Origin: Somniosus microcephalus
Taxonomy: Eukaryota
Assembly: GCA_052327205.1 (NCBI GenBank)
Contig: CM126220.1
Coordinates: 21,638,001 to 21,702,000, forward strand
Direction: 5' to 3'
Length of the DNA stretch: 64,000 nucleotides
The notes beneath the pieces were generated by a model that made no database searches, had not been told where the DNA came from, and saw only the letters and a list, made by a program, of their open reading frames with translations. Made by a program: the position numbers and the translations under genes. Of the stretch, positions 15,274-63,918 are shown one piece after another (positions within the stretch are counted from its first letter, which is position 1; each line of letters starts with the position of its first letter).

Positions 15274-15502
15274 TGATGTGCCATCAATTACTCAAAAGAC
15301 TGAGGTTGAGCGAGTAACAATCAGGCTTTTATTAACTAAAGAATGAAGGTCTTGTCTCGAGTGGTCGACCCGTCCAGAGTACTAAGGGACTGGGAGGTAG
15401 TCACTTATATACCTGGAATAGTGGGAGGAGTCAGCCGAGGCATGTCCAGACCTGTACCTAGTGGAATACACATACAGACAGGTATGACAGTGGTTTACCA
15501 CA
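15274..15502 (-). repeat. 3' LTR of Gypsy family A (229 bp)
   Basis: Matches 19437-19671 apart from about 3 substitutions and one 6-bp indel; TATA-like TATATAA and AATAAA on the minus strand. Confidence 0.95.
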
Positions 15503-15545
15503 TTCACCCCTTGTTTAAAAATGAGTCCGGCGGGGTGAAGTGTAT

Positions 15546-18350
15546 TTAAAAGTTCGTGTATTGGAGTCTCTCCGGAGGTCTTGTCTGCCGCTGTGATCGA
15601 CGTGGCGACGGCAGGGGTGGTGGAGCTTCCGGCGTCGCGTCCCGTGTAGGCTGGGGCCCTGGAGTGTAGTCCTCGTGGGTGACGGTCCAAGGCGAGCCGG
15701 CTGCTGGGGTTGGATATCGGGTCGTGGGGGGGGGTGGTAATGGGTAGTGGGTTACAGCGGTCCCCGAGGGTGCGAGGTCTCGTATGGAGACTGTGTCCTC
15801 CCGCCCGTCCGGGTATGCAATGTAAGCGTACTGGGGGTTGGCGTGGAGGAGGTCGACCCTCTCGACCAGGGGGTCCGTTTTATTGGTCCTCACGTGTCTT
15901 CTCAGTAGTACCGGCCCTGGGGACGTCAGCCATGGCGGTAACGATGTCCCCGATGTGGACTTCCTTGGGAAGACAAACATTTTCTCGTGAGGGGTGGCAT
16001 TGGTGGCAGTGCAGAGCAGTGACCGAATCGAGTGGAGCGCATCGGGGAGCACCTCCTGCCAGCGGGAGGTCGGAAGGCCCCTAGACTTTAAGGCTAGTAG
16101 GGCGGCCTTCCAAACTGTTGCATTCTCTCTTTCCACCTGTCCGTTCCCCCGGGGGTTGTAACTGGTGGTCCTGCTTGTGGCTATACCCCTAGCGAGCAGG
16201 TACTGGCGGAGTTCGTCGCTCATAAACGATGAGCCCCGGTCGCTATGGATATAGCTGGGGAAACCGAACAGGGTGAAGAGGCTGTTCAGAGATTTAATGA
16301 CCGTGGCACTGGTCATGTCCGGGCAGGGGATAGCGAACAGGAACCGGGAGTACTCGTCAATGATGTTGAGGAAGTACACATTGCGGTCGGAGGAGGGGAG
16401 AGGCCCTTTGAAATCGACGCTCAGGCGTTCGAAAGGGCGAGTGGCTTTTATCAGGTGGGCTCTGTCTGGTCTATAAAAGTGCGGTTTGCACTCAGCGCAG
16501 ACTTGGCAGTTCTTGGTCATGGTCCTGACCTCCTCGATGGAGTAAGGCAGGTTGCGGGCCTTGATGAAGTGGAAGAACCTGGTGATCCCCGGGTGGCAGA
16601 GGTCATTGTGGAGGGCCCTCAGCCTATCGATCTGCGCGCTGGCGCAGGTGCCACGCGATAGGGCGTCTGGGGGTTCATTGAGCTTCCCAGGCCGGTACAA
16701 GATCTCGTAATTGTAGGTGGAAAGTTCGATTCTCCACCTCAAGATCTTGTCATTTTTGATTTTGCCCCTCTGCTTGTTGTTGAACATAAAAGCAACTGAA
16801 CGCTGGTCAGTGAGCAGGGTAAATCGTTTTCCGGCCAGGTAGTGCCTCCAATGACGCACAGCCTCCACGATAGCCTGGGCCTCCTTCTCGACCGCGGAGT
16901 GTCTGGTCTCCGGGCCCTGGAGGGTTCGTGAGAAGAATGCCACAGGTCTCCCCGCCTGATTAAGGGTGGCGGCCAGAGCGAAGTCGAACGCATCGCTTTC
17001 CACCTGGAAGGGGATGGATTCGTCCACTGTGTGCATGGTGGCTTTGGCAATGTCTTCCTTGATACGGTGGAAGGCTAAGCGGGCCTCTGCCGTCACGGGA
17101 AAAGAGGTGGACTTGATCAGCGGACGGGCTTTGTCTGCATAGTAGGGGACCCACTGAGCGTAGTAGGAAAAAAACCCTAGGCACCTCTTCAGAGCTTTTA
17201 GGCAGTGGGAGTTCCATAAGGGGACGCATCCGGTCCGGGTCGGGACCGATGACCCCGTGTTCCACAACACGGCCAAGGATGGCGAGGCGGTCTGTGCGGA
17301 ATATGCACTTCTTGTTATATGTCAGGTTCAGGAGTTGGGCGGTGCGGAGGAATTTCTCGAGGTTTGCGTCATGGTCCTGCAAGCCATGGCCGCAGATGGT
17401 CACATTATCTAGGTAAGGGAAAGTGGCCTGCAGCTCGTTTTGATCGACCATCCGGTCCATCTCCCTTTGGAAGACGGAGACCCCGTTGGTAACGCCGAAG
17501 GGAACCCTAAGGAAGTGATAGAGACGGCCGTTTGCCTCAAAAGCAGTATACTGGCGGTCTTCAGGGCTGATGGGGAGCTGGTGGTACGCTGATTTCAGGT
17601 CAATGGTCGAAAAGACGCGGTACTGCGCGATCTGGTTGACCATGTCAGCTATGCGGGGGAGTGGGTAGGCGTCCAGCAGGGTGTAGCGGTTTATTGTTTG
17701 GCTGTAGTCGATGACCAGGCGTTGTTTCTCACCGGTCTTAACGACCACAACCTGGGCTCGCCAGGGGCTGGAGCTGCCCTCAATAATCCCCTCCTTCAGG
17801 AGCCGCTCCACTTCGGTTTTGATGAAAACCCTGTCCCCGGCACTGTATCGCCTGCTCTTTGTGGCGATGGGCTTACAGTCGGGGGTGAGGTTAGCAAACA
17901 GTGGGGGGGGGGTGGGACGCTGAGTGTGGAGAGGTTGCATCTGGTGCACGGCGGGCAATTTGGAGGCTGCTGGCTGCGGACTGTGAGTGGGGGGAGGGGG
18001 CCACCATACGCCATCGTAACGCTTTTGAGGTGGCACTGGAAATCCAACCCCAGTAGAACGGCAGCGCAGAGGTCGGGCAGGACCAGGAGTTTAAAATTAT
18101 TGAACACAGTCCCGTCTACTACTAGTGTCACCACGCAGTAGCCGCCAATGTCCGCTGACTGGGACTCGGAGGCCATAGAAATCCGCTGGTGTGCAGGCAG
18201 GACTGGGAGAGAGCAACGCCGCACCGTGTCGGGGTGGATGAAGCTCTCTGTGCTCCCGGAGTCAAAAAGGCAGTTTAATGCATGGCTGTTTACCTTAACG
18301 TCCATTTTGGACCGAGCTAGCTGGTGCGGTCTCGTTTGGTCCAGCGTCAC
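15546..18350 (-). pseudogene. pol (protease-RT-RNase H-integrase) of Gypsy family A, frameshifted
   Basis: LFDSGS protease, DLKSAYHQ/PFG/YLDN RT, VAFFSR/EKEAQA RNase H, H-H-C-C zinc motif and SDRG...GQVER integrase core across three frames; shifts near 17905 (G run) and 17205. Confidence 0.92.
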
Positions 18351-18488
18351 AGAGGCCAGCGCAGGGGTCGGTGTGTCACTGCGAGTATCAGATGGGGGGG
18401 GGGGGTTGGCGGTCTGCTGCGTCCCGGCTGGTGTCCAAGATGGCGGCGTCCATGATTCCCATGTGGCTGGAGTCGTCCAAGATGGCTG

Positions 18489-19412
18489 CTACTGCGGTGG
18501 TTCGCACATGGCTGGGGAGGCCCAAGATGGCGGCCCGCACGGCCCACACGCGGCGCTGTTGGGGGCCCAAGATGGCGGCTCGCACGGCCCACACGCGGCG
18601 CTGCTGGCGTTCGGGGTGGCTTTGGCCTTGCAGACGCTGGCGTAGTGTCCCTTTTTCCCGCAGCCCGAGCAGGTCGCATTCTTCGCCGGGCAGCGCGCTC
18701 TGGGGTGTTTGGCCTGGCCACAGAAGTAGCATTTCTGGCCTTGGGATACTGCTGTCTGGCTTTGGGACACTGCTGCGGTAGTTGGGCCGTTGTTGGGCTG
18801 TGGCTGGGGTGGCACGGTGCTATGGGGCTGTCCTACCGTGTCCCAGGTTGTCGTTCCCCGCGGCGTCCACGGTGCAGAGGAGTAGGCATCCATGCCCCGG
18901 AAGGCTGCGTCCAGCGTTAGTGCGATGTCGGAGGCTTTGTCGAGGGTGAGGTCACTCTGCTCCAGCAGTCGCTGTCGGGTGTAGTTGGACCTGTGGCCTG
19001 CTACGAAGGCATCCCGGATCAGTTCCTCCGTGTACTTAGTGGGCGTTACCGCCTTACACCCACAGGCCCGGCCAAGCACGGACAGTGCTTGGAGGTATTC
19101 CTCAGTCGATTCCCCAGGTTGTTGCTTGCGACTCCCCAGAAGGTGCCTAGCGTATACTTCGTTCACAGGGTGCGTGTACTGGGTCTTGAGGAGCTGGAGG
19201 GCGGCTGTGTACGAGGTCGCGCCCCGGATGACTGAGTACACTCGGTGGTTCACCTTGGAGAACAGGACAGACAGTTTGTCCGCATCCGTTTCGACCGCAG
19301 TGGAGGCAGTCAGGAATGTCTCGAAGCACGTGAGCCAGTGAGCAAACTTGGTGGAAGCGTCCGCTTCCCGACTGTCCAGGTCCAGGCATGCTGGTGTGAG
19401 GATCTTCTCCAT
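18489..19412 (-). CDS. Gag of Gypsy family A with tandem Cys/His zinc knuckles
   Basis: 307-aa ORF with CYFCGQAKHPRARC and CSGCGKKGHYASVC; continues in frame into the protease after a single TAG. Confidence 0.88.
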   Translation of the reverse strand: MEKILTPACLDLDSREADASTKFAHWLTCFETFLTASTAVETDADKLSVLFSKVNHRVYSVIRGATSYTAALQLLKTQYTHPVNEVYARHLLGSRKQQPGESTEEYLQALSVLGRACGCKAVTPTKYTEELIRDAFVAGHRSNYTRQRLLEQSDLTLDKASDIALTLDAAFRGMDAYSSAPWTPRGTTTWDTVGQPHSTVPPQPQPNNGPTTAAVSQSQTAVSQGQKCYFCGQAKHPRARCPAKNATCSGCGKKGHYASVCKAKATPNASSAACGPCEPPSWAPNSAACGPCGPPSWASPAMCEPPQ

Positions 19413-19436
19413 TATAAAAAATTTAGTTAATAAAAT

Positions 19437-19671
19437 TGGTGTGCCATCAATTACTCAAAAGACTGAGGTTGAGCGAGTAACAATCAGGCTTTTATTAACT
19501 AAAGAATGAAGGTCTTGTCTCGAGTGGTCGACCCGTCCAGAATACTAAGGGACTGGGAGGTAGTCACTTATATACCTGGAATAGTGGGAGGAGTCAGCCG
19601 CGGCATGTCCAGACCTGTACCTAGTGGAATACACATACAGACACAGACAGGTATGACAGTGGTTTACCACA
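19437..19671 (-). repeat. 5' LTR of Gypsy family A (235 bp)
   Basis: Direct repeat of 15274-15502; gag ATG (19412) lies only 24 nt inside it. Confidence 0.95.
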
Positions 19672-41803: not shown

Positions 41804-41840
41804 TCACAAGCTTTCGGAGCGCTGCTCCTTCTTCAGGTGA
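41804..41840 (-). ncRNA. Minimal hammerhead ribozyme (inverted copy)
   Basis: Reverse complement of 43568-43604. Confidence 0.8.
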
Positions 41841-43567
41841 AGTGGAGAAATGCATAAAGACACAGCTTATATAGTCAGAGAATCATGTCAGATGTTTACA
41901 GGTAACCTTTCCAACTGCCATTTGTCACACCTCGGCAGAGAGATAATCACAGCAGTCAAAGGTGTGAATGGTGTCCAAACAGGTCAGTCAGGGAAACATT
42001 ACATCAAAGAACAATGAGGTGGGGTCACAAGGGGTCAAATATTGCAGATGCTGGGGTCTGTATGAAAAACAAAAAAACAGACAAAAAACATTTTTTTTGG
42101 CTGGAAATCACAGCAGGTCCGGCCGCATCTGTGTAGAGAGAACAAGCCAATGTCGACTCGAGTCTGGATGACCCTACATCAGGTGGGGTTACATGTAGCG
42201 TGACATGAACCCAAGATCTCGGTTAAGGCCGTCCTCATGGGTGCGGAACTTGGCTATCAGTTTCTGCTCGACGATTTTGCGTTGTCGTGTGTCTCGAAGG
42301 CCACCTTGGAGAATGCTTACCCGAAGATCGGAGGCTGAATGTCCTTGACTGCTGAAGTGTTCCCCGACTGGGAGGGAACACTCCTGCCTGGTGATTGTTG
42401 CGCGGTGTCCGTTCATCCGTTGTCGCAGTGTCTGCATGGTCTCGCCGATGTACCATGCTCCGGGGCATCCTTTCCTGCAACGTATGAGGTAGACAACGTT
42501 GGCTGAGTCACATGAGTATGTACCATGTACCTGGTGGGTGGTGTCCTCACGTGTGATGATGGTATCTGTGTTGATGATCTGGCATGTCTTGCAGAGGTTG
42601 CTGTGGCAGGGTTGTGTGGTGTCGTGGTCGCTGTTCTCCTGGAAGCTGGGTAATTTGCTGCGAACGATGGTCTGTTTGAGGTTAGGCGGCTGTTTGAAAG
42701 CGAGTAGTGGAGGCGTGGGGATGGCCTTAGCGAGGTGTTCGTCGTCATCGATGACATGTTGAAGTCTGCGAAGAACATGGCGTAGTTTCTCCGCTCCGGG
42801 GAAGTACTGGACGACGAAGGGTACTCTGTTGGTTGTGTCCCGTGTTTGTCTTCTGAGGAGGTCTATGCGATTTTTCGCTGTGGCCCGTCGGAACTGTCGA
42901 TCGACGAGTCGAGCATCATATCCCGTTCTTACAAGGGCGTCTTTCAGTGTCTGTAGGTGTCCATCGCGTTCCTCCTCGACACTGCGACAACGGATGAACG
43001 GACACCGCGCAACAATCACCAGGCAGGAGTGTTCCCTCCCAGTCGGGGAACACTTCAGCAGTCAAGGACATTCAGCCTCCGATCTTCGGGTAAGCATTCT
43101 CCAAGGTGGCCTTCGAGACACACGACAACGCAAAATCGTCGAGCAGAAACTGATAGCCAAGTTCCGCACCCATGAGGACGGCCTTAACCGAGATCTTGGG
43201 TTCATGTCACGCTACATGTAACCCCACCTGATGCAGGGTCATCCAGACTCGAGTCGACATTGGCTTGTTCTCTCTACACAGATGCGGCCGGACCTGCTGT
43301 GATTTCCAGCCAAAAAAAATGTTTTTTGTCTTTTTTTGTTTTTCATACAGACCCCAGCATCTGCAATATTTGACCCCTTGTGACCCCACCTCATTGTTCT
43401 TTGATGTAATGTTTCCCTGACTGACCTGTTTGGACACCATTCACACCTTTGACTGCTGTGATTATCTCTCTGCCGAGGTGTGACAAATGGCAGTTGGAAA
43501 GGTTACCTGTAAACATCTGACATGATTCTCTGACTATATAAGCTGTGTCTTTATGCATTTCTCCACT

Positions 43568-43604
43568 TCACCTGAAGAAGGAGCAGCGCTCCGAAAGCTT
43601 GTGA
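43568..43604 (+). ncRNA. Minimal type-I hammerhead ribozyme in Penelope pLTR
   Basis: TCAC-CTGAAGA-A-GGAGC(AGC)GCTCC-GAAA-GCTT-GTGA: stem I TCAC/GTGA, CUGANGA and GAAA core, stem II GGAGC/GCTCC, palindromic AAGCTT in place of stem III. Confidence 0.8.
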
Positions 43605-46600
43605 TTTCAAATAAAGCTGTTGGACTATAACCTGGTGTTGTGTGATTTCTTACATTCTTGAATGTTGTGAGGGTTCCTGCCTCTACCACCCTTTCAGGCA
43701 GTGAGTCCCAGATTCCAACCCACCCTCTGGGTGAAAAAGTTCCTCCTCAAATCCCCTCTAAACCTCCTGCCCCTTACCTTGAATCTATGCCCCCTTGTTA
43801 TTGACCCCCCTACTAAGGGGAAAAGTTCCTCTTTATCTACCCTATCTATGCCCCTCATCATTTTGTACACCTCAATCAGGTCCCCCCTCAGCCTTCTTTG
43901 CTCCAAGGAAAACAACCCCAGCCTGTTTAGTCTTTCTTCATAGCTGAGGCGCTCCATCCCAGGTAACATCCTGGTGAATCTTCTCTGCACCCTCTCCAAA
44001 GCAATCACATCCTTCCTATAGTGAGGCGACCAGAACTGCACACACTACTCCAGCTGTGGCCTCACCAGCATTTTGTACAGCTCCATCATAACCTCCCTGC
44101 TCTTATATTCTATGCCTCGGCTAATGAAGGCAAGTATCCCATATGCCTTTTTAACCACCTTATCTACCTGTTCTGCTGCCTTCAGGGATCTATGTACATG
44201 TACACCAAGGTCCCTCTGACCCTCTGTACTTCCTAGGGTCCTACCACTCATTGTGTATTCCCTTGCCTTATTTGTCCATCCAAAATGCATCACCTCGCAC
44301 TTTTCAGGGTTAAATTCCATTTGCCACTTTTCCGCCCATCTGACCAACCCGTTTATATCGTCCTGTAGCCTGAGGCTTTCCTCCTTGCAATTTACCACCC
44401 CACCAATTTTCGTGTCATCTGCGAACTTACTGATCATACCTTTTACATTCTCATCCAAATCATTTATGTAGATCACAAACAGCAAGGGTCCCAGCACCGA
44501 TCCCTGAGGTACCCCACTGGACACAGGCTTCCAGTCGCAAAAGCAACCTTCGACCATCACCCTCTGCCTCCTGCCACTCAGCCAGTTTAGGATCCAATGC
44601 GCCAAGGCACCCTGGATCCCATGGGTCCTTGACCAGTCTCCTATGTGGGACTTTGTCAAAAGCTTTACTGAAATCCATGTAAACCACATCCACAGCATTT
44701 CCCTCATCCACACACCTAGTCACCCCCTCGCAAAATTCAATCAGATTGGTCAGACATGATTTACCCTTGACAAAGCCATGCTGACTATCCCCGATTAATC
44801 CTTGCCTCTCCAAGTGGAGACTAATTTTGTCCCTCGGAATTTTTTCCAATAATTTCTCTACCACAGATGTTAGGCTCACTGGCCTGTAATTCCCTGGTTT
44901 ATCCCTGCTACCCTTCTTGAATAATGGTACTACGTTAGCTGTTCTCCAGTCCTCTGGTACATCCCCTGTGGCCAGAGAGGTTCTGAAAATTTGTGTCAGA
45001 GCCCCTGCAATCTCCTCCTTTGCCTCATACAACAGCCTGGGATACATCTCGTCCGAGCCTGGGGATTTATCCACTTTTTGGCCTGCTAAAACCACTAGTA
45101 CCTCCTCCCTCTCGATGCTAATATGTTCAAGTATGTCACAGTCCCCTTGCCCGATTTCTATGTCTACATCGTCTTTCTCCATAGTAAACACAGATGCAAA
45201 AAATTCATTCAAAACCCCGCCTACATCATCTGGCTCTACACACAGATTGTCACTTTGGTCCCTAATGGGCCCTACCCTTTCCCTCGTTATCCTCTTGCCC
45301 TTAATATACTTATAAAACATCTTAGGATTTTCCTTTATTTTGCTCACCAGTGTTATTTCATGGCCCCTCCTCGCCCTCCTAATTTCTTTTTTAAGTATGC
45401 CCCTGCACTTTTTATACTCCTCTAGGGTTTCCTCCGTCTTTAGTCTTTTGTAACTGCCAAAAGCCCCCCTTTTTTTCCTAATGCATTTTTGTATATCCCT
45501 TGTCATCCAAGGTTCCCTTTGCTTGTTGGTCCCACCCTTGACCTTTACAGGAACATGTTGGCGTTGTACTCTCTCTCTATTTCCCTTCTGAAAGTCTCCC
45601 ACTGCTTTGATGTGGATTTTCCTATAAGTAGCTGCTCCCAGTCCACTTTGGCCAGATCCTGCCTTATCATATTAAAATCGGCCTTCCCCCAATTTAGAAC
45701 CCTTATTTCCGGGCCGCCTTTGTCTTTTTCCATGACCACCTTAAATCTCACCGAATTATGGTCACTGTCGCCAAAATGCTCTCCTACTGACACTTCCAGC
45801 ACTTGCCCGGCTACATTCCCTAGAATTAGGTCCAGTACCGCCCCCTCTCTTGTAGGACTTTCTACATGTTGGCTCAAAAAGCTCTCCTGGATGCACTTTA
45901 AGAATTCTGCACCCTCTAAGCCTTTCACACTCTGACTATCCCAATTAATATTGGGGAAGTTGAAATCCCCCACTATTATTACCCTATTATTTTCGCACTT
46001 CTCTGAGATTTGCCTACATATCTGTTCCTCTATCTTCCCCCTGACTGTTTGGGGGCCTATAGTACACTCCCAGCAAAGTGCTTGACCCCTTTTTGTTTTT
46101 AAGTTCTACCCATATGGCCTCATTAGAGGAACCCGCTAATATATCATCCCTCCTTACAGCAGCAATTGATTCCTTAATTAATATTGCAACACCCCCTCCC
46201 CTTTTACACCCCCCTCTGCCTCACCTGAAGATTCTATACCCCGGAATATTGAGCTGCCAGTCCTGACCCTCAACCATGTCTCCGTGATAGCAACAATATC
46301 GTACTCCCATGTGTTCAACAACAACTTCAGTTCATCCACCTTATTTGCAAGACTCCTTGCATTAAAATAAATGCCTTCCAGCCTTGCCATATTCCCTTTT
46401 GCCTTCACATATTTGCTCTGCCTTCCCAGCTGACTTGTTTTTTCCTCCGTATTTGGCTGTAAATCACCCCCTACTATAGTTCCACTCTGTATCCCATTCC
46501 CCTGCCAAGTTAGTTTAAACCCCCCCCCCCCCCCCCCCCCCCCCCCCAGCAGTGCTAGCAAACCTCCCCGCAAGGATATTGGTCCCCCTCTGGTTCAGGT

Positions 46601-48294
46601 GTAAACCGTCCGACTTGTACAAGTCCCACCTTTCAGTTGGCAAGCTGCAGTTTGCGTTCATGGCAGCTATGAAGGCAAATAAACAAGTCAATTTTTGCCT
46701 TTTTTTAAAAATCTGAAGACTGAAGGCTAGAGATGTTGGAGAAACGTCAGTAGTAATAGAATTTGGGGGGATTTTTTTTTAATCTGATCAGCGTGGGTTA
46801 ATGCTGCCATTTATTTTTAAATGGGATGTGAAATGCCCCTTGACTCAGTCCTTTTAAAGGAGCACAATGTAAGTGCTTGGCAAGCTTTGTGTCTACGAGT
46901 ACATGATGTCTGTTATACAGATAAACTATTGTCATTTGCAAGATAGTGTCACATGACTCCTGGCTCTTTAGTTCTTTTCCCTATTTTTGCCCAGACGCAT
47001 TTTTTTTCCCCAATGTTTGCTCATTTTCTTCCTTGCTCTCCTGAAGGTGAAACTTGCACGACAATATGGTTGAGTTTGATCAATCCTTCTGCACCCATCC
47101 AGACTCTCTGCAACAGCATAAATGGGCTTTTTGACGGTGACCGCGAGCTTCTAGTCTGTGTGGCTCGGCACCAAGTGATGCATTTATCCACTGTACATCT
47201 AAGATGGGAAAGATATAAGCCTCGTCTCAGGCAGCTGCTTACTGTGCGCACAGCCCTGGATTTCGCTGGAATGCAGACATTAGACCTAAAATCATCAGTT
47301 CTTTTACTTCTGAACTTTCCCCTTGGTTTTTTGCATTTAAATGGTGGCAGATGTCGTCTTTTCTGCAATACTGCAATTTCAGACCTTTAATATAGCAGCA
47401 TAGACATCTTGTGGCCTTTCTAATCAGGACTGTTTAACTGGCAATTTGTGCCAAATGATCTTTCTATACTGCTCTTGTACACTTGGGTACTCAATCTGAG
47501 ACTGCTCAAGCTCCTTATTGCTCTTCAGAGGAAACGCTCTAGTACTGTGACAAAACTGGAAAATTGTTTTGTTCCCTGTTTTGTACACTTGCAGGTCGTG
47601 TATGATGCAGATTAGAAGAAAAATATCTTAACCTCGGACTCAGTAGAACTCCTCAATTTGTGATGTATTTTTATCTTCTACACTAGTTGACCATGTGGCC
47701 TCTGGGATTGTTGAATAAGTAGAGAATTAGTCAGTTTTGAGTTGTGTACTTAGTGCTATGGCCTCCAATCCACTTCAGTTTGTCAGCAGAGTACTTAATC
47801 AGTCTGGGCTGGATTGGAACCTGGGTCCTGGAGGGGAAAGGGGAGTACTGCATTGCATCATCCTTGCGTTCGCTCTTCTCTTGATGGCGTTTACAATAAT
47901 TGTACTGGACAGCAGGAATACAGACTTCCAGGTTACTTTTAATTTGGTTTGGATTACTGTCCTTATAAGTTTGAATATTTTATATATGTAGCAAGTAAGT
48001 ACAGAGCTTTCCATCCAAGTTGGCTGTGTAAAGCAGCAGCATAGTGCTTTTCCAGACCCGTTGTACTGCCTGGCGATTGTGCATCAATTTAGTCACTTCC
48101 AACGCTGCCCTGTTGTGGGATCCTGACGAGACTTTCTCTGCGGGTAGGCTGGGGTCCTTTTAGTTCTCGGAGAAATTATTGTTTCCGTATTTAACAAGGA
48201 AGAGTAATTTGGGGGATTTCTGGATGTAAAATGGTTTGAAGTATTAACTGGCCCAATATAATAGGAATTGTTGCTCACTTGGTTTCTGTAGTGT

Positions 48295-49640
48295 ACAAAT
48301 GTAAGAAGTCACACAACACCAGGTTATAGTCCAACAGTTTTATTTGAAATCACAAGCTTTCGGAGCGCTGCTCCTTCGTCAGGTGAAGTGGAGAGATGCA
48401 TAAAGACACAGCTTATATAGTCAGAGAATAATGCAAGATGATTACAGGTAATCTTTCTAACTGCCATTTATCACACCTCGGCAGAGAGATAATCACAGCA
48501 ATCAAAGGTGTGAATGGTGTCCAAACAGGTTAGTCAGGAAAACATTACATCAAGGAACAATGAGGTGGGGTCACAAGGGATCAAATGTTACAGATGCTGG
48601 GGTCTGTATGAAAAACAAAAAACATTTTTTTTGCTGGAAATCACAGGTCCGGCCGCATCTGTGTAGAGAGAACCAGCCAACGACGACTCGAGTCTGGATG
48701 ACCTTACGTCAGGTGGGGTTACATGTAGCGTGACATGAACCCAAGATCCCGGTTGAGGCCGTCCTCATGAGTGCGGAACTTGGCTATCAGTTTCTGCTCT
48801 ACGATTTTGCGTTGTCGTGTGTCTCGAAGGCCGCCTTGGAGAATGCTTACCCGAAGATTGGAGGCTGAATGTCCTTGACTGCTGAAGTGTTCCCCGACTG
48901 GGAGGGAACACTCCTGCCTGGCGATTGTTGCGCGGTGTCCGTTCATCCGTTGTCGCAGTGTCTGCATGGTCTCGCCGATGTACCATGCTCCGGGGCATCC
49001 TTTCCTGCAACGTATGAGGTAGACAACATTGGCCGAGTCACATGAGTATGTACCATGTACCTGGTGGGTGGTGTCCTCACGTGTGATGATGGTATCTGTG
49101 TTGATGATCTGGCATGTCTTGGCGGTTGCCGTGGCAGGGTTGTGTGGTGTCGTGGTCGCTGTTCTCCTGAAAGCTGGGTAATTTGCTGCGAACGATGGTC
49201 TGTTTGAGGTTAGGCGGCTGTTTGAAGGCGAGTAGTGGAGGCGTGGGGATGACCTTAACGAGGTGTTCGTCGTCGTCATCGATGACATGTTGAAGGCTGC
49301 GAAGAACATGGCGTAGTTTCTCCGCTCCGAGGAAGTAATGGACGACGAAGGGTACTCTGTTGGTTGTGTCCCGTATTTGTCTTCTGAGGAGGTCTATGCG
49401 ATTTTTCGCTGTGGCCCGTCGGAACTGTCGATCGACGAGTCGAGCGTCATATCCCGTTCTTAGGAGGGCGTCTTTCAGCGTCTGTAGGTGTCCATCGCGT
49501 TCCTCCTCGTCTGAGCAGGTCCTGTGTATTCGCAGGGCTTGTCCATAGGGGATGGCTTCTTTAACGTGGTTAGGGTGGAAGCTGGAGAAGTCGAGCATCG
49601 TGAGGTTGTCCGTGGACTTGCGGTAGAGTGAAGTGCTGAG
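48295..49640 (-). mobile_element. Penelope-like element of the same family, 5'-truncated (RT thumb/linker, GIY-YIG, pLTR)
   Basis: ORFs 49077-49598 (SFHPNHVKEAIPYGQALR) and 48719-49309 (VYLIRC...YIGET); 3' UTR closely matches 41752-42188. Confidence 0.92.
48350..48386 (-). ncRNA. Minimal hammerhead ribozyme in second Penelope copy
   Basis: Same fold with core CTGACGA; differs only at the variable N7 position. Confidence 0.8.
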
Positions 49641-54374: not shown

Positions 54375-57300
54375 AGGTTGTAATCTCTGGATTACTCCCG
54401 GTGCCACGTGCTAGTGAGTATAGGAATAGGAGGATAGAGCAGATGAATGCGTGGCTAAAGAGTTGGTGCAGGAGGGAGGGCTTTAGTTTCCTGGATCACT
54501 GGGTCTGCTTCTGGGGAAGGTGGGACCTGTATAAGTCGGACGGGTTGCCCCTGAACCGGAACAGGACCAACATCCTTGCAGGGAGGTTTGCTAGTACCGT
54601 TGCAGGGGGTTTAAACTAATTAATTTGGCAGGGGGATGGGATACGGCGTGGAGCTATAGTAGGGGGTGATGCACAGCCAAATATAGAGGAAAAAACAAGT
54701 CAGCCTGGAAGGCAGAGCAAATATGTAACAGCACGAGGGAGTATGGCCAGGCTGGATGGCATTTATTTTAATGCAAGAAGTCTTGCAAGTAAGGCAGATG
54801 AATTGAAGGTGTTGATGAACACGTGGGAGTATGATATTGTTCTTATCACAGAGACCTGGTTGAGGGAGAGGCAGGACTGGCAGCTCAATATTCTGGGGTA
54901 TAGAATCTTTAGGCGAAACAGAGGGGGGGTGTAAAAGAGGAGGGGGTGGTCGCAATATTAATCAAGGAGTCAATTACTGCTGTAAGGAGGGATGATATCT
55001 TAGGTTCCTCTAATGAGGTCATATGGGTAGAACTTAAAAACAAATAGGGGGCAAGCACTTTGCTGTGAGTGTACTATAGGCCCCCAAACAGTCAGGGGCA
55101 GATAGAGGAACAGATATGTAGGCAAATCTCAGAGAAGTGTGCAAATAATAGTGTGGGATTTCAACTTCCCCAATATTAACTGGGATAGTCAGAGTGTGAA
55201 AGGCTTAGAGGGTGCAGAATTCTTAAAGCGCATCCAGGAGAGCTTTTTGAGCCAGCATGTAGAAAGTCCTATAAGAGGGGGCGGTACTGGACCTAATTCT
55301 AGGGAATGTAGCCAGGCAAGTGGTAGAAGTGTCTGTAGGAGAGCATTTTGGTGACAGTGACCATAATTCGGTGAGATTTAAGGTAGTCATGGAAAAGGAC
55401 AAAGATGGACCGGAAATAAAGGTTCGAGATTGGGGGAAGGTCGATTTTAATATGATAATGCAGGATCTGACCAAAGTGGATTGGGATCAGCTACTTGTAG
55501 GAAAATCCACATCAGAGCAATGGGAGTCTTTCAGAAAGGAAATAGAGAGTACAATGCCAACATGTTCCCGTAAGGGTCAAGGGTGGGACCAACAAACCAA
55601 GGGAACCCTGGATGTCGAGGGATATACAAGAATGGATTAGGAAAAAAAGGGAGGCTTTTGGCAGATACAAAGGACTAAAAACAGTGGAAGCCCTAGAGGA
55701 GTATAGAAAGTGCAGGGGGGTACTTAAAGAAATTAGGAGAGCGAAGAGGGGGCATGAAAAAATACTGGCGGGCAAAATAAAGGAAAATCCCAAGGTGTTT
55801 TATTTATAAGTATATTAAGGGCAAGAGGATAACCAGGGAAAGAATAGGGCCCATTCGGGACCAAAGTGTGTAGAGCCGGAAGATGTAGGTGAGGTTTTAA
55901 ATGAATATTTTGCATCTGCATTCACTATGGAGAAGGACGATGTAGCCATAGATATCAGGCAGGGGGATTGTGATATACTTAAACAAATTAGTATTGAGAG
56001 GGAGGAGGTACTAGCGGTTTTAGCGGGCTTAAAAGTGGATAAATCCCCAGGCCCAGACGAGCTGTATCCCAGGCTGCTGTGTGAGGCAAGGGAGGAGATT
56101 GCAGGGGCTCTGACACAAATTTTCCAAACCTCCCTGGCCACAGCGGAGGTGCCAGAGGACTGGAGAACAGCTAACGTAGCACCATTATTCAAGAAGGGTA
56201 GTAGGGATAAACCAGGGCATTACAGGCCAGTGAGCCTAACACCAGTGGTAGGGAAATTATTGGAAAAAATTCTGAGGGACAGAATTAGTCTCCACTTGGA
56301 GAGGCAAGGATTAATCAAAGATAGTCAGCATGGCTTTGATGGGGGGAGATCATGTTTGACCAATTTGATTGAATTTTTCGAGGGTGACTAGGTGTGTGGA
56401 TGAGGGTAGTGCAGTTGATTTAGTCTACATGGACTTCAGTAAGGCTTTTGACAAAGTCCCACATGGGAGACTGGTCAAGAAGGTAAGAGCCCATGGGATC
56501 CAGGGTAATTTGGCACATTGGATCCAAAATTGGCTTAGTGGCAGGAGGCAGAGGGTGATGGTCGAAGGTTGTTTTTGTGACTGGAAGCCTGTGTCCAGTG
56601 GTGTACCGCAGGGATCGCTGCTGGGTCCTTTGCTGTTTGTAGTGTACATTAATGATTTAGATATGAATGTAGGAGGTATGATCAGTAAGTTCGCAGATGA
56701 CACGAAAATTGGTTGAGTGGTAAATAGCGAGGAGGGCAGCCTCAGGCTACAGGACGATATAGATGGGTTGGTTAGATGGGCAGAACAGTGGCAAATGGAA
56801 TTTAACCCTGAAAAGTGTGATGTGATGCATTTTGGGAGGACTAACAAGGCAAGGGAATACACAATGAATGGTAGGACCCTAGGAAGGACAGAGGATGAGA
56901 GGGACCTTGGTGTGCATGTACATAGATCCCTGAAGACAGCAGGACAGGTAGATAAGGTGGTTAAAAAGGCATATGGAATACTTGCCTTCATTAGCCGAGG
57001 CATAGAATATAAGAACAGGGAGGTTATGATGGAGCTGTACAAAACGCTAGTTAGGCCACAGCTGGAATACTGTGTGCAGTTCTGGTTGCCACACTATAGG
57101 AAGGATGTGATTGCATTGGAGATTCACCAGGATGTTACCTGGGCTGGAGTGCTTCAGCTATGAAGCGAGACTGGACAGGCTGGGCGGGGGGGGACCTGAT
57201 TGAGGTGTACAAAATTATGAGGGGCATAGATAGGGTAGATAGAAAGGAACTTTTCCCCTTACTAGAGGGGTCAATAACCAGGGGGCATAGTTTCAAGGTA

Positions 57301-57550
57301 AGAGGGAGGGGATTTGAGGAAAAAAAAATTCACCCAGAGGGTGGTTGGAATCTGGAACTCGCTGCCTGAAAGGGTGGTAGAGGCAGGAACCCTCAACATT
57401 CAAGAAGCATTTAGATGAGCACTTGAAACACCATAGCATACAAGGCTACGGACCAGGTGCTAGAAAATGGGATGAGAATAGACGGGGCTTGATGGCCGGC
57501 GCGGACACTATGGGCCAAAGGGCCTCTTTCTGTGCTGTATAATTCTATGA
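54375..57550 (+). mobile_element. Long CR1 LINE (ORF1 SGNH-esterase end, endonuclease, RT, 3' UTR)
   Basis: NAWLKSWCRREGF.F.DHW...YKSDGL.LN esterase; YFNARSL; DFSKAFDKVPH; SKFADD; same family as 41568-46632 in opposite orientation. L2 remnants on both sides (54140-54370, 57590-57830). Confidence 0.92.
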
Positions 57551-58464
57551 CTCCAAGTAAACCATACGGTATGTAACCTCCTGTTTGATCATGGGTTGTG
57601 TTTCATGCCCCATATTCAGTACATCACCAAGACTGCCTATTCCCAGCTTTATAGCAATACCTGCCTCTGCCTTTCTCACTTCAATGCTGAAACATTTTCA
57701 ACTCCGCTTCCAACTTGTCTCAAGCTCTGCCGCCCACATATTATCCCACTTGGCTGTCACTCCTGTCTACGCTCCCCACAGTTGGCTGGCTGTCGCCCAA
57801 TGTATCTCCCACATTCAAAGTTACCGCAAACCCTGTTTCTTTGACACTGCCTTCCGTCACCTCTCCTAACTTTTCTAATGTATTGTATCTGTATTTATCT
57901 TTTAAGCATTTTTTATTTTAACAAAAATGCCCTAATTGAAAGGTGGTTGGCTATGGAATTGGAGAACAATATCAGAAGAGATTTTCAAAGAAACTTGTCA
58001 TTCTCAACAGAATGGCAGTATACCAAACTTCCACTCCGCACTGTTATCGAGTCAGCCCAGCTGGAACTGCATGTGTGTGTGGATACCAGGAGACAGCAGA
58101 ACTGACTCGAATGTGATGTCTCCCGTATGGTCAAATGACCCATTGGCTCTCATTGTCCAGATTCTTGCATGAAGAATGGTTGATTGAATGAGGTACAGGA
58201 GGATTGTCATAACCAACTGCAGAACTATTCCTCAGTGGTTTTCCTTCAGGTGAGGAAGTCTAAAGGGAGACAAAGGAATGGTGGGGAAGGGAAATTGCAT
58301 GAGGGGGAAAAAAATCATTGGAAAGTAACCTGCACAGCAGCTGTGTCTGATTGGAGGTGTAGGTCTCTAATCTGTGCAGACTAGTCATTCAATCAGTCTG
58401 GACATTAACGACCTAATCAGAGAAAAAGGTGATTCACCTTTCCGAGTAAACCCTGAAATGTTAC

Positions 58465-58709
58465 TGATGCGCTATCAACAATACCAAAGACTACGAAATG
58501 GACTTCTATGAAGTAGGCTTTTATTGACTAAGAACTAGAGCATGCCTCTGCTAGTGAATCCATCCTAAGAGCTCCCGGGGGAAGGGTGGTGAGTCACCTT
58601 TATACCCGGGCTTAGGGGTGGAGCCAGGGGCTGAGACATGCCTGGACTTGTACAGGGTTAACAGTGGTTTACCACACAGGCATGTACAGGTTAACAGTGG
58701 TTTACCACA
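58465..58709 (-). repeat. 3' LTR of Gypsy family B
   Basis: Direct repeat of 62552-62796; internal ~30-bp tandem duplication ending in CAGTGGTTTACCACA. Confidence 0.95.
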
Positions 58710-58751
58710 TTCACCCCTCGTTTAAAAAAGAGTCCGGCGGGGTGAAGTGTT

Positions 58752-61700
58752 TCAAAAGTTCGTATACGAAAGTCTCTCCGGGGGTCTTGTCTGCCGTAAT
58801 GATCTTCGTGGCGCTGGTTGCGGCGGTTCTTTGCCCGCGGCCGCTTCTCGCGTGGGACGGAGCACTGGCGTGTCGTCCTCTCGGGGTAGGGATGGCACCG
58901 GCATGTCGTCAGTTCGTGGTAGACACCCCGGTGGTGCGTCGTGGGTAGTGGTGGTGGGTGGAGGTAGTGGATGGTGATCGATGGTGTTTCGGGTGGTACC
59001 TGAGGGTGCGAGGTCTCGAATTGAGACTGTGTCCTCCCGCCCGTCAGGATACGCCACGTGGGTTGGCGTGGAGGAGGTGAACCTTTTCGACCAGGGGGTC
59101 CGTCTTATGGCTCCTCACGTGTTTCCTGAGCAGGACGGGTCCCGGAGACGTCAGCCATGGCGGTAGTGATGTCCCCGAGGTGGATTTCCTGGGGAAGACG
59201 AACATCTTCTCGTGAGGGGTGGCGTTTGTGACAGTACAGAGCAGTGAGTGGAGCGCATCGGGGAGGACATCTTGCCAGCGGGAGATTGGGAGGCCCTTGG
59301 ATTTTAGGGCGAGCATGGCGGTCTTCCACACCGTTGCGTTCTCCCTCTCTACCTGTCCGTTACCCCGGGGGTTGTAGCTGGTAGTCCCGCTCGTGGCTAT
59401 GCCCTTCTCGAGCAGGTACTGGCGCAGCTCGTCGCTCATGAACGACGAGCCCCTGTCGCTGTGGATGTAATTGGGGAAGCCAAATATGGCGAACAGGTCG
59501 TGGAGGCACCTGATGACTGTGGCGCTGGTCATGTCCGGGCAGGGGATGGCGAAGGGGAAACGGGAGTACTCGTCAATAATATTGAGGAAGTACGTGTTGC
59601 GGTCAGAGGAGGGAAGGGGCCTCTTGAAATCGACGCTGAGACGTTCGAAGGGGCGGGTGGCTTTAATCAGGTGTGCCCTGTCTGGCCTATAAAAATGCGG
59701 TTTGCATTCGGCGCAGACCTGGCAGTTCCTGGTCATGGTCCTGACCTCCTCGATGGAGTAAGGCAGGTTGCGAGCTTTAATAAAGTGGAAGAACCTGGTG
59801 ACCCCCGGGTGGCAGAGATCATTGTGGAGGGTCCGTAGCCTATCGACTTGTGCGTTGGCACATGTCCCACGGGATAGGGCGTCTGGGGGCTCATTAAGTT
59901 TCCCGGGCCGGTATAAGATATCGTAGTTGTAGGTGGATAACTCGATCCTCCACCGCAATATCTTATCATTTTTGATTTTCCCCCTTTGTCTGTTGTTAAA
60001 CATAAATGCTACTGACCGTTGGTCAGTGAGCAGGGTGAAACGTTTACCGGCCAGGTAATGCATCCAGTGCCGTACAGCCTCCACTATCGCCTGGGCCTCC
60101 TCCTCGACTGAGGAGTGTCGAATTTCGGGGCCCTGGAGGGTCCGTGAAAAGAAGGCCACGGGTCTCCCCGCCTGGTTAAGGGTTGCGGCTAGGGCGAAGT
60201 CGGATGCATCGCTCTCCACTTGGAAAGGGATGGACTCATCCACTGCGTGCATTGTGGCCTTAGCAATGTCCTCTTTTATGAGGGTGAAGGACGCACGGGC
60301 CTCTGCCGTCAGGGGGAAGGAGGTTGACTTGATGAGGGGCCGGGCTTTGTCCGCATAGTTGGGCACCCACTGGGCGTAGTAAGAGAAGAACCCTAGGCAT
60401 CTCTTCAGGGCTTTTAGGCAGTGGGGGGGGGGCTAGTTCCAGGAGGGGGCGCATTTGGTCGGGGTTGGGGCCGATGACTCCGTTTTGCACCACGCAGCCA
60501 AGAATAGCGAGGCGCGCGGTGCGGAACATACATTTTTCTCTGTTGTATGTCAGATTCAGCCGTTGGGCCGTACGGAGGAATTTTTCTAGGTTGGCGTCGT
60601 GGTCCTGCCGGTCATGGCCGCAGATGGTGACGTTGTCTAGATAGGGAAGGTGGCCTGCAGCGCGTTCTGGTCAACCATCCGGTCCATCTCCCTTTGGAAG
60701 ACCGAGACCCCGTTGGTGACGCCGAAGGGGACTCGGAGGAAGTGGTAGAGGCGACCGCCAGCCTCGAAGGCCGTGTACTGGCGGTCCTCAGGCCTGATGG
60801 GGAGCTGGTGGTATGCTGACTTCAGATCAATCGTCGAGAATACCCGGTATTGTGCTATCTGGTTGACCATGTCAGATATGCGGGGAAGTGGGTATGCGTC
60901 TAATTGCGTGTATCGATTGATCGTCTGGCTGTAATCAATAACCAGGCGCTGTTTTTGGCCGGTCTTTACTACCACCACTTGGGCTCGCCATGGGCTGGTG
61001 CTGCCCTCGATAATCCCTTCCCTCAGGAGTCTTTGTACTTCTGATTTAATCAAGCTCCTATCCCCGGCACTGTACCGCCTGCTTTTAGTAGCAATTGGCT
61101 TGCAGTCTTTGGCGAGGTTAGCGAACAACGGTGGGCGTTTGACCTTCAGGGTGGACAGGCTGCATACATTGCGCGGCGCCGTGTTTAAATTCTGCTGGCT
61201 GCAGACTAAGTGGGGGCAGGGGCCCGCCATATGCCATCGTGACGCTCTCCAGATGGCACTGGAAGTCTAATCCTAGCAGTACGGGAGCGCAGAGCTGTGG
61301 CAGGACGAGGAATTTAAACTCTCTGTACTCCACGCCGTTCACGGTCAGAGTCGCTGCACAGTAGCCGCCGACGTCCGCCGTATGGGACTTTGAGGCCATA
61401 AAGACCTGGTGGCGTGTGCGCATAACTGATCTGGAGTAGCGTCGCACCGTGTCGGGGTGGATGAAGCTCTCCATGCTTCCGCAGTCGAAAAGGCAATTTG
61501 TGGCATGGCCATTTACCTTTACGTTCATCATGGACCTGGCTAGTTGATGGGGCCTAGATTGGTCCAGGGTGATGGAGGCCATCGTCGAGGTCGGTGGGTC
61601 GCTGTGGTATTCGCCCGCGCCGAGGGCCTGGTCCCGAGATGGTGTCCAAGATGGCGGCTCCCCCTCGGCTGGTGGTGTCCAAAATGGCGGCCCGCACAGC

Positions 61701-62529
61701 TCACACGTGGTTGGTGGGGTCCAAAATGGCGGCCTGTACGGTTCACACGCGGCGCTGCTGGAATTGGGGGTCGATTTTGCCTTGCACACTCTCGCGTAGT
61801 GGCCTTTCTTGCCGCATTTGGAGCAGGTCGCGTCCTTTGCTGGGCATTGCTGTCTGGGGTGCTTGGCCTGGCCGCAGAAGTAGCATTTCTGGCCTCTGGT
61901 CATTGCAGCTGTAGTTGGGCTGCTGGCGGCTCGTGGCCTTACCGGGTCCCAAGATGGCTGCTCCCGTGGCATCCACGTGGCCATCCAGTCAGGGGGGTAG
62001 GCGTCCATGTTCTGGAGGGCCACGTCTAACGAGTTAGCGAGGGCCACCGTCTTCTGCAGGTCGAGCCCCCTCTGTTCCAGCAGCCTCTGCCGAGTATAGT
62101 TGGACCTGATGCCGGCTATGTAGGCGTCTCGGATCAGGTCTTCCGTGCATTCCTTGGCCGTCGCCGCTTTGCAATTACAGTCCCGGCCGAGGACTCTCAG
62201 TGCCAGTAAATATTCAGCGCCCAATTCCCCGGGGCGCTGTTTTCGGGTAGCCAGGAGATGTCTGGCGTAGACCTCGTTAACAGGCCTCACGTATTGTTCC
62301 TTTAGTGTCGCGATAGCGGCCACGTAAGTAGTGGCGTCTCGGATGATCGAGTAGACTCGTGGCTCACCCGTGAGTTCAAGACAAGCCGTTTCGCGTCATC
62401 TGTAGTGACAGTAGTGCTGGAGGCCTCCAGGAAGGCTTCGAAACAGCTCAGCCAGTGTTCAAAGTTATTGGCTGCATCTGCTGCTTGAGGATCCAGGTCT
62501 AAACGTTCCGGCTTCAAGATTTGCTCCAT
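58752..62529 (-). pseudogene. gag-pol of Gypsy family B with several frameshifts
   Basis: ORF pieces 62302-62529 (MEQILKPERLDLDP), 61118-62323 (gag knuckles plus LFDCGS protease in one frame), 60637-61230 (RT), 59044-60366 (RH-IN), 58752-59057 (IN C-terminus). Confidence 0.92.
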
Positions 62530-62551
62530 GTTGAAAATTAGTCAATAAAAT

Positions 62552-62796
62552 TGATGCGCCATCAACAATACCAAAGACTACGAAATGGACTTCTATGAAG
62601 TAGGCTTTTATTGACTAAGAACTAGAGCATGCCTCTGCTAGTGAATCCATCCTAAGAGCTCCCGGGGGAAGGGTGGTGAGTCACCTTTATACCCGGGCTT
62701 AGGGGTGGAGCCAGGGGCTGAGACATGCTTGGACTTGTACAGGGTTAACAGTGGTTTACCACACAGGCATGTACAGGTTAACAGTGGTTTACCACA
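62552..62796 (-). repeat. 5' LTR of Gypsy family B
   Basis: Direct repeat of 58465-58709; gag ATG at 62529. Confidence 0.95.
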
Positions 62797-62839
62797 GTTA
62801 CGTCTCGTATGCATAATTAATTAGAAAAAATGTCCTACA

Positions 62840-63190: not shown

Positions 63191-63473
63191 ATCTGTTAAC
63201 TGGACGTAGGTCCTGGAGGGTATTTTGTTGGACCAGTAATGAAGTGCTCAAGTTGTACTGTTTCACTTATCTTGTGAAGCCAAGATTTTGAAATTCTGAA
63301 AAATACAGCCTAAAAATCTGGGATGTAGAGTGTAATCCACGCTCTTTGTCAGATTCCTGTTGAACGTTAGGCTCAGCATGTAGCAGTATTGTCGAGGCTT
63401 ATTGCCATACTGTAGTTCTGTCTTGTTACAAAATTCTTTCTTGGGGTGGGGACGAATAAGAGGCCGAGAAAAG

Positions 63474-63918
63474 ACTCCGCCTGCCCCCAGGGCCGGAGCT
63501 GCTGACTCGGCCTGCCCCCAGGGCCGGAGCTGCTGACTCGGCCTGCCCCCAGGGCCGGAGCTGCTGACTCGGCCTGCCCCCAGGGCCGGAGCTGCTGACT
63601 CGGCCTGCCCCCAGGGCCGGAGCTGCTGACTCGGCCTGCCCCCAGGGCCGGAGCTGCTGACTCGGCCTGCCCCCAGGGCCGGAGCTGCTGACTCGGCCTG
63701 CCCCCAGGGCCGGAGCTGCTGACTCGGCCTGCCCCCAGGGCCGGAGCTGCTGACTCGGCCTGCCCCCAGGGCCGGAGCTGCTGACTCGGCCTGCCCCCAG
63801 GGCCGGAGCTGCTGACTCGGCCTGCCCCCAGGGCCGGAGCTGCTGACTCGGCCTGCCCCCAGGGCCGGAGCTGCTGACTCGGCCTGCCCCCAGGGCCGGA
63901 GCTGCTGACTCGGCCTGC
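63474..63918. repeat. GC-rich 31-bp minisatellite, about 14 identical copies
   Basis: Unit GCCTGCCCCCAGGGCCGGAGCTGCTGACTCG in direct tandem with no spacers. Confidence 0.95.

Follow-up and report, generated by a model that had tools for sequence, protein, structure and literature searches.

To our knowledge, self-priming of reverse transcription has been shown experimentally for the retrotransposon Tf1 alone, and it is usually read as a mark of the Tf1/sushi chromoviruses. In the accessible parts of the reports on this system, self-priming is demonstrated for Tf1 and described as a common feature of Tf1/sushi chromoviruses, and the Tf1 RNA adopts a three-duplex fold in which the primer is the 5' end of the RNA itself (PMC4600332, bioRxiv 10.1101/2022.12.06.519325, PMC11042837). 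Self-primers have also been predicted in plants, for the Ty3/Gypsy element Tcn1 and for the Ty1/copia elements TAR, Houba and Osr-1, according to the available text of PMC6317226. The elements analysed here belong to a Ty3/Gypsy lineage that has no chromodomain, and we consider it probable that they use Tf1-like self-primed reverse transcription, with a primer site that would be re-copied from the primer.

The window, i.e. the whole 64-kb stretch of DNA that was analysed, contains element B and its sister, element A (Table 1), which match each other at 74% over 4,264 nt in blastn. Element B displays the protease-RT-RNase H-integrase order of Ty3/Gypsy elements, together with TG...CA LTRs, a polypurine tract and a target-site duplication. 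Its gag portion has two CCHC knuckles, and neither a chromodomain nor an env gene was found in or beside its gag-pol frame. This particular copy is broken: the frame changes near positions 62357 and 61215, and near 60637 it contains an in-frame stop. In the direction of the element, the LTR end at 62552 is followed by one base, by a 13-nt site in the place of a primer-binding site, by 8 nt and then by the gag ATG. The first base of this site pairs with the 3' end of a complementary stretch inside the LTR, hereafter the arm. The 13-mer of the arm occurs three times in the whole window if the primer site is counted, the other two occurrences being those in the B LTRs, and ARAGORN predicted no tRNA within the 64 kb. 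The first ~30 nt of the element B LTR are tandemly duplicated (62745-62796 and 58658-58709), and some other copies have one unit only.

Table 1. Positions of the features of elements B and A in the window
Feature	Position	Strand	Remarks
Element B	58465-62796	-	Ty3/Gypsy LTR retrotransposon, ~4.3 kb
5' LTR, element B	62552..62796	-	245 bp, TG...CA; 2 mismatches vs the 3' LTR
3' LTR, element B	58465..58709	-	Arm copy at 58519-58531, primer site not adjoining
TATA-like TATAAA	62686..62691	-	73-75 nt upstream of the 11-mer of the arm; families A, A' and B only
LTR arm, element B (candidate self-primer)	62606..62618	-	AATAAA at 62612-62607
GCCT motif	62602..62605	-	Just 3' of the arm; putative cleavage junction AAA|RCC
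Hairpin at LTR end	62551..62565	-	Families A, A', B and C
Spacer, element B	62551..62551	-	One base between the LTR end (CA) and the primer site
Primer-binding-site position, element B	62538..62550	-	Complementary to the LTR arm over 13 nt; without TGG
gag-pol, element B	58755..62529	-	Single frame: gag, protease, RT, RNase H, integrase
Polypurine tract, element B	58710..58719	-	
5-bp target-site duplication, element B	58460..58464		Partner at 62797-62801
Element A	15274..19671	-	Sister family; LTRs 15274-15502 and 19437-19671
Primer site and arm, element A	19422-19435 (site), 19490-19503 (arm)	-	Sister of element B

Several other repeats lie in the window. Just beyond element B, a GC-rich unit of 31 nt is repeated in tandem ~14 times with hardly any change (63473-63910). 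At 41740-43656 lies a large inverted repeat that is nearly perfect, its arms being 98-99% complementary across a 545-nt spacer, and a second, direct copy of its sequence is found 6.5 kb away at 48286-49509; the open reading frames of this inverted repeat have no Pfam match. Two LINE-like copies, ~90% alike and in opposite orientation, are located at 43714-46515 and 54618-57315, with an RT match at 44460-45671.

The initial annotation of this DNA had reported that positions 62538-62550 (TTAGTCAATAAAA on the plus strand) are the exact reverse complement of LTR positions 62606-62618 with a loop of 55 nt (54 nt in A), that a hairpin TTGAT-GCGCC-ATCAA is present at 62551-62565, and that one pair is changed on both sides between the two families. 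All of these observations were reproduced, the changed pair being C-G in B (62613 with 62543) and T-A in A. In element A the helix joins 19423-19435 with 19490-19502, or comprises 14 bp if one extra pair is counted. In contrast, the LTRs of A and B are not largely unalignable, as the same annotation had stated: the 5' LTRs match end to end at 159/230 columns (69%), with an alignment score of 111 (best of 300 shuffles, -30), and the loops are identical at 35/52 columns. A versus B alone thus amounts to a single compensated pair in two related sequences, which by itself is little proof. Folding energy alone is also weak evidence for the helix, with MFE z-scores of -1.5 (B) and -3.5 (A) for the 98-nt 5' region and of +0.9 and -1.0 for longer fragments.

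Further families were picked by gag homology, blind to the helix, from this genome and from metagenomes. The 6.4-Gb genome gave ~50,000 first-look gag candidates, and the gag searches within it yielded families A, A', B and C as well as two subfamilies of D (D1 and D2). For the metagenomes, the best 80 of 428 confirmed stretches were considered, and the gag start was present in 32 of those 80. Named relatives were found in rays, a catshark, corals, a sea anemone and a nematode; scans of viral contigs with gag and with the alignment returned no relative.

The presence of the helix was assessed without prior anchoring by searching for the longest perfect inverted repeat between the leader and the DNA upstream of it, at 7 loci of this genome and 32 metagenome loci; in all, 4 loci were dropped for too little upstream DNA. 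The search found 11-18 perfect bp at 29 of the 35 loci left, with at most one of 200 shuffles performing as well. Of the six loci below this criterion, four (L067, L083, L087 and L097) still have the helix, interrupted by one or two mismatches, and another, L118, had been anchored on a decayed copy, its other copy having 15 bp as judged by eye; neither arm nor helix was found at the L115 locus. Among 140 copies of the genome itself, the helix has 12/12 pairs in 125 copies and one or two mismatches in 9, and 6 copies were not anchorable.

The covariation test over more families that the initial annotation had proposed gave a strong signal. The set comprised one row per family or subfamily, excluding near-duplicates, short loci and L118; 25 rows were tried and 24 anchored by a best-register rule combined with a motif. 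This procedure overstates the pairing at the first 11 positions, a bias that the unbiased repeat search does not have. Over these 24 families, 98.7% of the 312 cells of the 13-bp helix are paired and 10 of its 13 pairs covary, with two-sided changes in 66 cells versus a one-sided change in a single cell, a G-U. None of 500 shuffles reached the score, controls with a slid register pair at 22-54%, and permuting the arms among families left 115 +/- 6 pairs as against 190/192 in the real combinations. RNAalifold, unprompted, returned the same 13 pairs. Parsimony on the gag tree (positions 1-13) counts 47 changes in the arm, 49 in the primer site and 50 jointly, ~46 of these 50 inferred changes being simultaneous on both sides of the helix. 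There are 22 distinct 11-mers among the 24 families, and no family (0/24) has the TGG of a tRNA-type site; the presence of such sites is what the annotation had named as contrary to its reading. The three pairs closest to the LTR end are A-U without exception. Beyond the 13 bp, pairing fades, with 42/72 cells paired at positions 14-16 and 11/48 at positions 17-18.

The same pattern is found at short evolutionary distance, as the near-identical subfamilies L058/L059, D1/D2 and A/A' are one compensated pair apart. Single mutated copies behave differently: changes in the primer site were uncompensated in 3/3 cases, and changes in the arm in 6/6 copies that have a primer site. The latter came from a set of 8 changed-arm copies, and 4 of the 6 represent a single copy that was duplicated; all of these counts are lower bounds from exact-pattern searches. 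The mismatches in 9 of the 140 copies of the genome are likewise uncompensated. These uncompensated copies fit mutation after insertion, and they neither show nor exclude templated copying.

The register of the helix is fixed. It starts one base past the LTR end in 24/24 families as anchored, the LTR ends having been checked against the 3' LTR and, in several loci, against 5-bp target duplications; the loop varies from 21 to 80 nt across the clade and the register remains the same. The LTR end of a retrotransposon is set by the start point of minus-strand synthesis. On its 3' side the arm is followed by (A/G)C, mostly (A/G)CC, across families. AATAAA or ATTAAA lies inside the arm in 16/24 families, and the eight others, with neither hexamer, keep the helix. 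Many families have a second short helix that starts from the junction. These junction stems add up to 92 bp versus 72 +/- 5.5 in shuffles, none of 1000 of which reached the real value; G-U pairs are frequent in them, and the stem is weak in element B itself. As for the hairpin at the LTR end, four of this genome's six families share it, but across the clade it does not exceed shuffles (96 paired positions versus 89 +/- 6, a value reached by 135/1000 shuffles).

In the mechanism that we propose, the 5' region of the RNA would fold back on itself, bringing a stretch of 13 nt (11-18) within R into a duplex with the site located one base after the LTR end. A cut at the 3' end of the R stretch, at the conserved AAA|RCC junction and probably by the RNase H of the element as in Tf1, would generate a new 3' OH that primes minus-strand DNA and thereby sets where the LTR ends. 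The primer would then be copied in plus-strand synthesis, so that the site is rewritten from the arm and changes appear as pairs. The same helix may, in addition, mask the poly(A) signal of the 5' LTR while that of the 3' LTR stays accessible. An RNase H domain is present in element B and in the clade proteins, of which 16 full-length ones were profiled. As a positive control, an 11-bp duplex at LTR end + 1 was recovered by the script in 4 of the 6 sushi-type loci fetched from the same genome, the LTRs being unresolved in one locus and another being a tandem array. In the sushi-type loci L244 and L246-L249, the 11-bp self-primer at LTR end + 1 is followed by a hairpin, and a TATA-like word lies ~30 nt before it.

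The initial annotation had left a choice between selection on an RNA structure and templated copying of a self-primer, either of which it preferred to a chance match of AT-rich sequences, and this preference holds on the wider evidence of the 24 families. Between the two options, the fixed one-base register and the scarcity of G-U and one-sided changes favour the self-primer. These features, together with the sushi control, point to a primer rather than to a general RNA structure, as re-copying of the site from the primer at each cycle should leave hardly any G-U or one-sided states; junction stems, in contrast, often hold G-U pairs.

A chance match inherited from a common ancestor would suit the AT-richness of the words, the relatedness of A and B (69% LTR identity) and the z-score of -1.5 for B, but it would have to account for ~46 simultaneous two-sided changes across families whose loops are unalignable. 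The covariation counts rule it out, and we give it next to no credence. Another idea is that the helix serves only to hide the poly(A) signal of the 5' LTR, preventing premature 3'-end formation, and that the primer is something else. It would explain why the arm contains AATAAA or ATTAAA in 16/24 families and why the three terminal A-U pairs are invariant, and the TATA-like box of A, A' and B, which suggests an internal arm, agrees with it. Nevertheless, masking is not the whole story, since 8/24 families keep the helix with neither hexamer. It has no need for a register fixed to one base from the LTR end, and it should tolerate G-U pairs, contrary to the 1 one-sided versus 66 two-sided cells of this helix and unlike what is seen in the junction stems. 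It also leaves the element primerless, given the 0/24 families with TGG. We regard masking as very improbable when taken as the only role of the helix, although it may be a second one.

Alternatively, the elements could be self-primed by the 3' copy of R, in the same RNA or in a partner RNA, so that the length of the primer would not be set by the transcription start. That the arm is present in both LTRs is compatible with this, as is the extension of the pairing past an initiator-like AG(T/C) motif, with positions 12-13 covarying and positions 14-16 paired in 42/72 cells; yet heterogeneous 5' ends explain a ragged extension equally well. Moreover, a junction cut of the 3' copy would presumably remove the R overlap required for strand transfer unless a second RNA supplies it, and a local fold-back is predicted with pair probabilities of 0.79-0.96. 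We consider this variant very improbable. Priming by a host RNA, i.e. an internal tRNA fragment or another small RNA, the LTR match being secondary, has a precedent in the half-tRNA priming known in Ty1/copia lineages (available text of PMC6317226). A host primer, however, would keep its site constant, whereas the 24 families have 22 different 11-mers that each track their own LTR, which makes this explanation highly improbable. We prefer self-priming from the fold-back of the 5' RNA. It is tempting to go further and to picture an animal-wide Ty3/Gypsy lineage in which self-priming arose separately from that of Tf1/sushi and in which the poly(A) signal of the element doubles as primer, with one helix that would hide the signal and then be cut at AAA|RCC, the primer being internal or derived from the 3' R. 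This fuller scenario is tentative, and we hold it to be rather unlikely as a whole.

Where transcription starts relative to the arm bears on the nature of the primer. If judged by the TATA-like box of A, A' and B, transcription would begin ~30 nt ahead of the 13-nt arm, and the primer would be internal. A TATA word at a fixed distance from the arm was not found across the clade, most other families being without it. In RNA reads from a related organism, no pile of starts or ends was found in the LTR. Over gag, sense reads dominate (L031:134-830, runs X7 and X8), and both letters that distinguish A' (positions 305 and 380) are frequent, albeit unphased, so that A' is probably transcribed in that related organism.

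Composite arrangements of these elements were also observed. At one locus (L050, G000:C1:101243900-101253000), three family B elements are arranged head-to-tail with shared single LTRs and a 4,110-nt period, and spacings like those of this array recur in other match lists. Tf1 forms such tandem arrays, as reported in the accessible part of PMC11042837. Upstream of gag at locus L172, a family C leader lies head-to-head with the inverted LTR end and primer site of an apparent further family. At the 5' end of locus L032, the 5' LTR of a family B copy begins mid-way, directly after a family D-like LTR end.

With this clade, the geometry is seen in a second Gypsy lineage, one that is abundant and occurs in animals, which suggests that priming without a tRNA is either widespread or a trait that evolved several times. 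Self-primed elements would escape silencing by tRNA fragments, and annotation procedures that require a tRNA site miss them. In addition, the 22 natural primer sequences, the three invariant A-U pairs and the conserved junction together offer a map of what the cutting enzyme needs.

In quick trees of RT-RNase H, the clade forms a separate long branch (SH-aLRT 100), distinct from three sushi rows, all of them from vertebrates, to which it is ~30% identical. The AU test does not reject sushi as its sister group (p=0.19), which makes an independent origin plausible but no stronger than that. The outgroup rows among the fetched loci are, as we take them to be by motif, Mag, CsRn1 and Gmr1/Barthez. 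They fall apart from the clade in the quick trees, which speaks against membership in Mag (A, B, C), CsRn1 or Gmr1/Barthez. A search of the PDB with the clade RT returned only Ty3 and more distant RTs, and the ESM Atlas gave generic gag clusters. Relative to Ty3, the clade RT has a one-residue insertion in the region of the DY-x motif, which may be a signature of the clade.

The clade is possibly Cigr-1, a tentative assignment by tabulated markers. The single open reading frame of ~1,210 codons and the 245-bp LTRs are presumably further points of likeness. Cigr-1 of Ciona intestinalis (Gypsy-Cigr in RepeatMasker) is tabulated in the accessible part of PMC2774666 with two CCHC arrays, a lost GPY/F module and neither chromodomain nor env. 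Our clade likewise has two CCHC arrays and is devoid of GPY/F, chromodomain and env, a combination shared with some Osvaldo-clade elements. The protease flap of Cigr-1 is tabulated as TANG, whereas the clade proteins have MAS-x at the likely equivalent place; the table lists classes and not an alignment (PMC2774666). The Cigr-1 clade is reported in molluscs too (available text of PMC6238403). We found no statement on priming in the literature on Cigr-1, no mention of self-priming for this lineage in the accessible portions of PMC3601003, PMC10886601, PMC3670739 and PMC2577118, and no report of self-priming in a non-chromovirus animal Gypsy clade, in a literature search that reached few subscription papers. 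The feature is real and strongly covarying; it probably represents a variant of a known mechanism, in a lineage to which the searchable literature had not previously tied it.

Other retrotransposons also have non-tRNA sites. The Conserved Hairpin Site of the fungal GalEa copia elements is also a non-tRNA structure at the position of the primer site, but both its arms are downstream of the LTR and conserved in sequence, whereas in our clade one arm is inside the LTR and the arms covary (accessible text of PMC5445492). The GalEa hairpin, Skipper and the bivalve TRIMs all have a layout that differs from that of the clade, as far as the available parts of the sources describe them (PMC5445492, PMC5006619, PMC6934838). 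The elements of the clade share with Tcn1, TAR, Houba and Osr-1 the criterion by which those were predicted to be self-primed, namely a complementarity of 10 bp or more whose start lies 0-5 bp beyond the LTR (available text of PMC6317226). In contrast with this animal Gypsy clade, these four belong to plant lineages, of other clades or of another superfamily, and their existence indicates that self-priming is not confined to a single lineage.

The closest parallels are with Tf1/Tf2 of Schizosaccharomyces pombe, Tj1 and sushi, which, in the accessible parts of the reports, also have a site complementary to their own LTR and no tRNA site (PMC4600332, bioRxiv 10.1101/2022.12.06.519325). The sushi copies of the same genome share the LTR end + 1 register, with a duplex of 11 bp. 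In contrast, the duplex of the clade is 13 bp long, AT-rich and often holds a poly(A) hexamer, and its loop is short (21-80 nt). Unlike Tf1/sushi, the clade has two CCHC knuckles, and a chromodomain or SH3_Tf2-1 was detected in 0/16 full-length clade proteins (E<=0.01), whereas other elements of the genome carry SH3_Tf2-1. The three-duplex fold of Tf1 is partly mirrored, as the junction stem is enriched (0/1000 shuffles) but the LTR-end stem is not (135/1000); the second helix of the clade is a hairpin next to the primer end and not clearly a 'pretzel'. While the Tf1 primer consists of the first bases of the RNA, that of families A, A' and B would be internal if judged by their TATA-like box. 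Judged by its sequences, the clade is thus Tf1-like in its predicted priming, yet it is not a member of the Tf1/sushi group.
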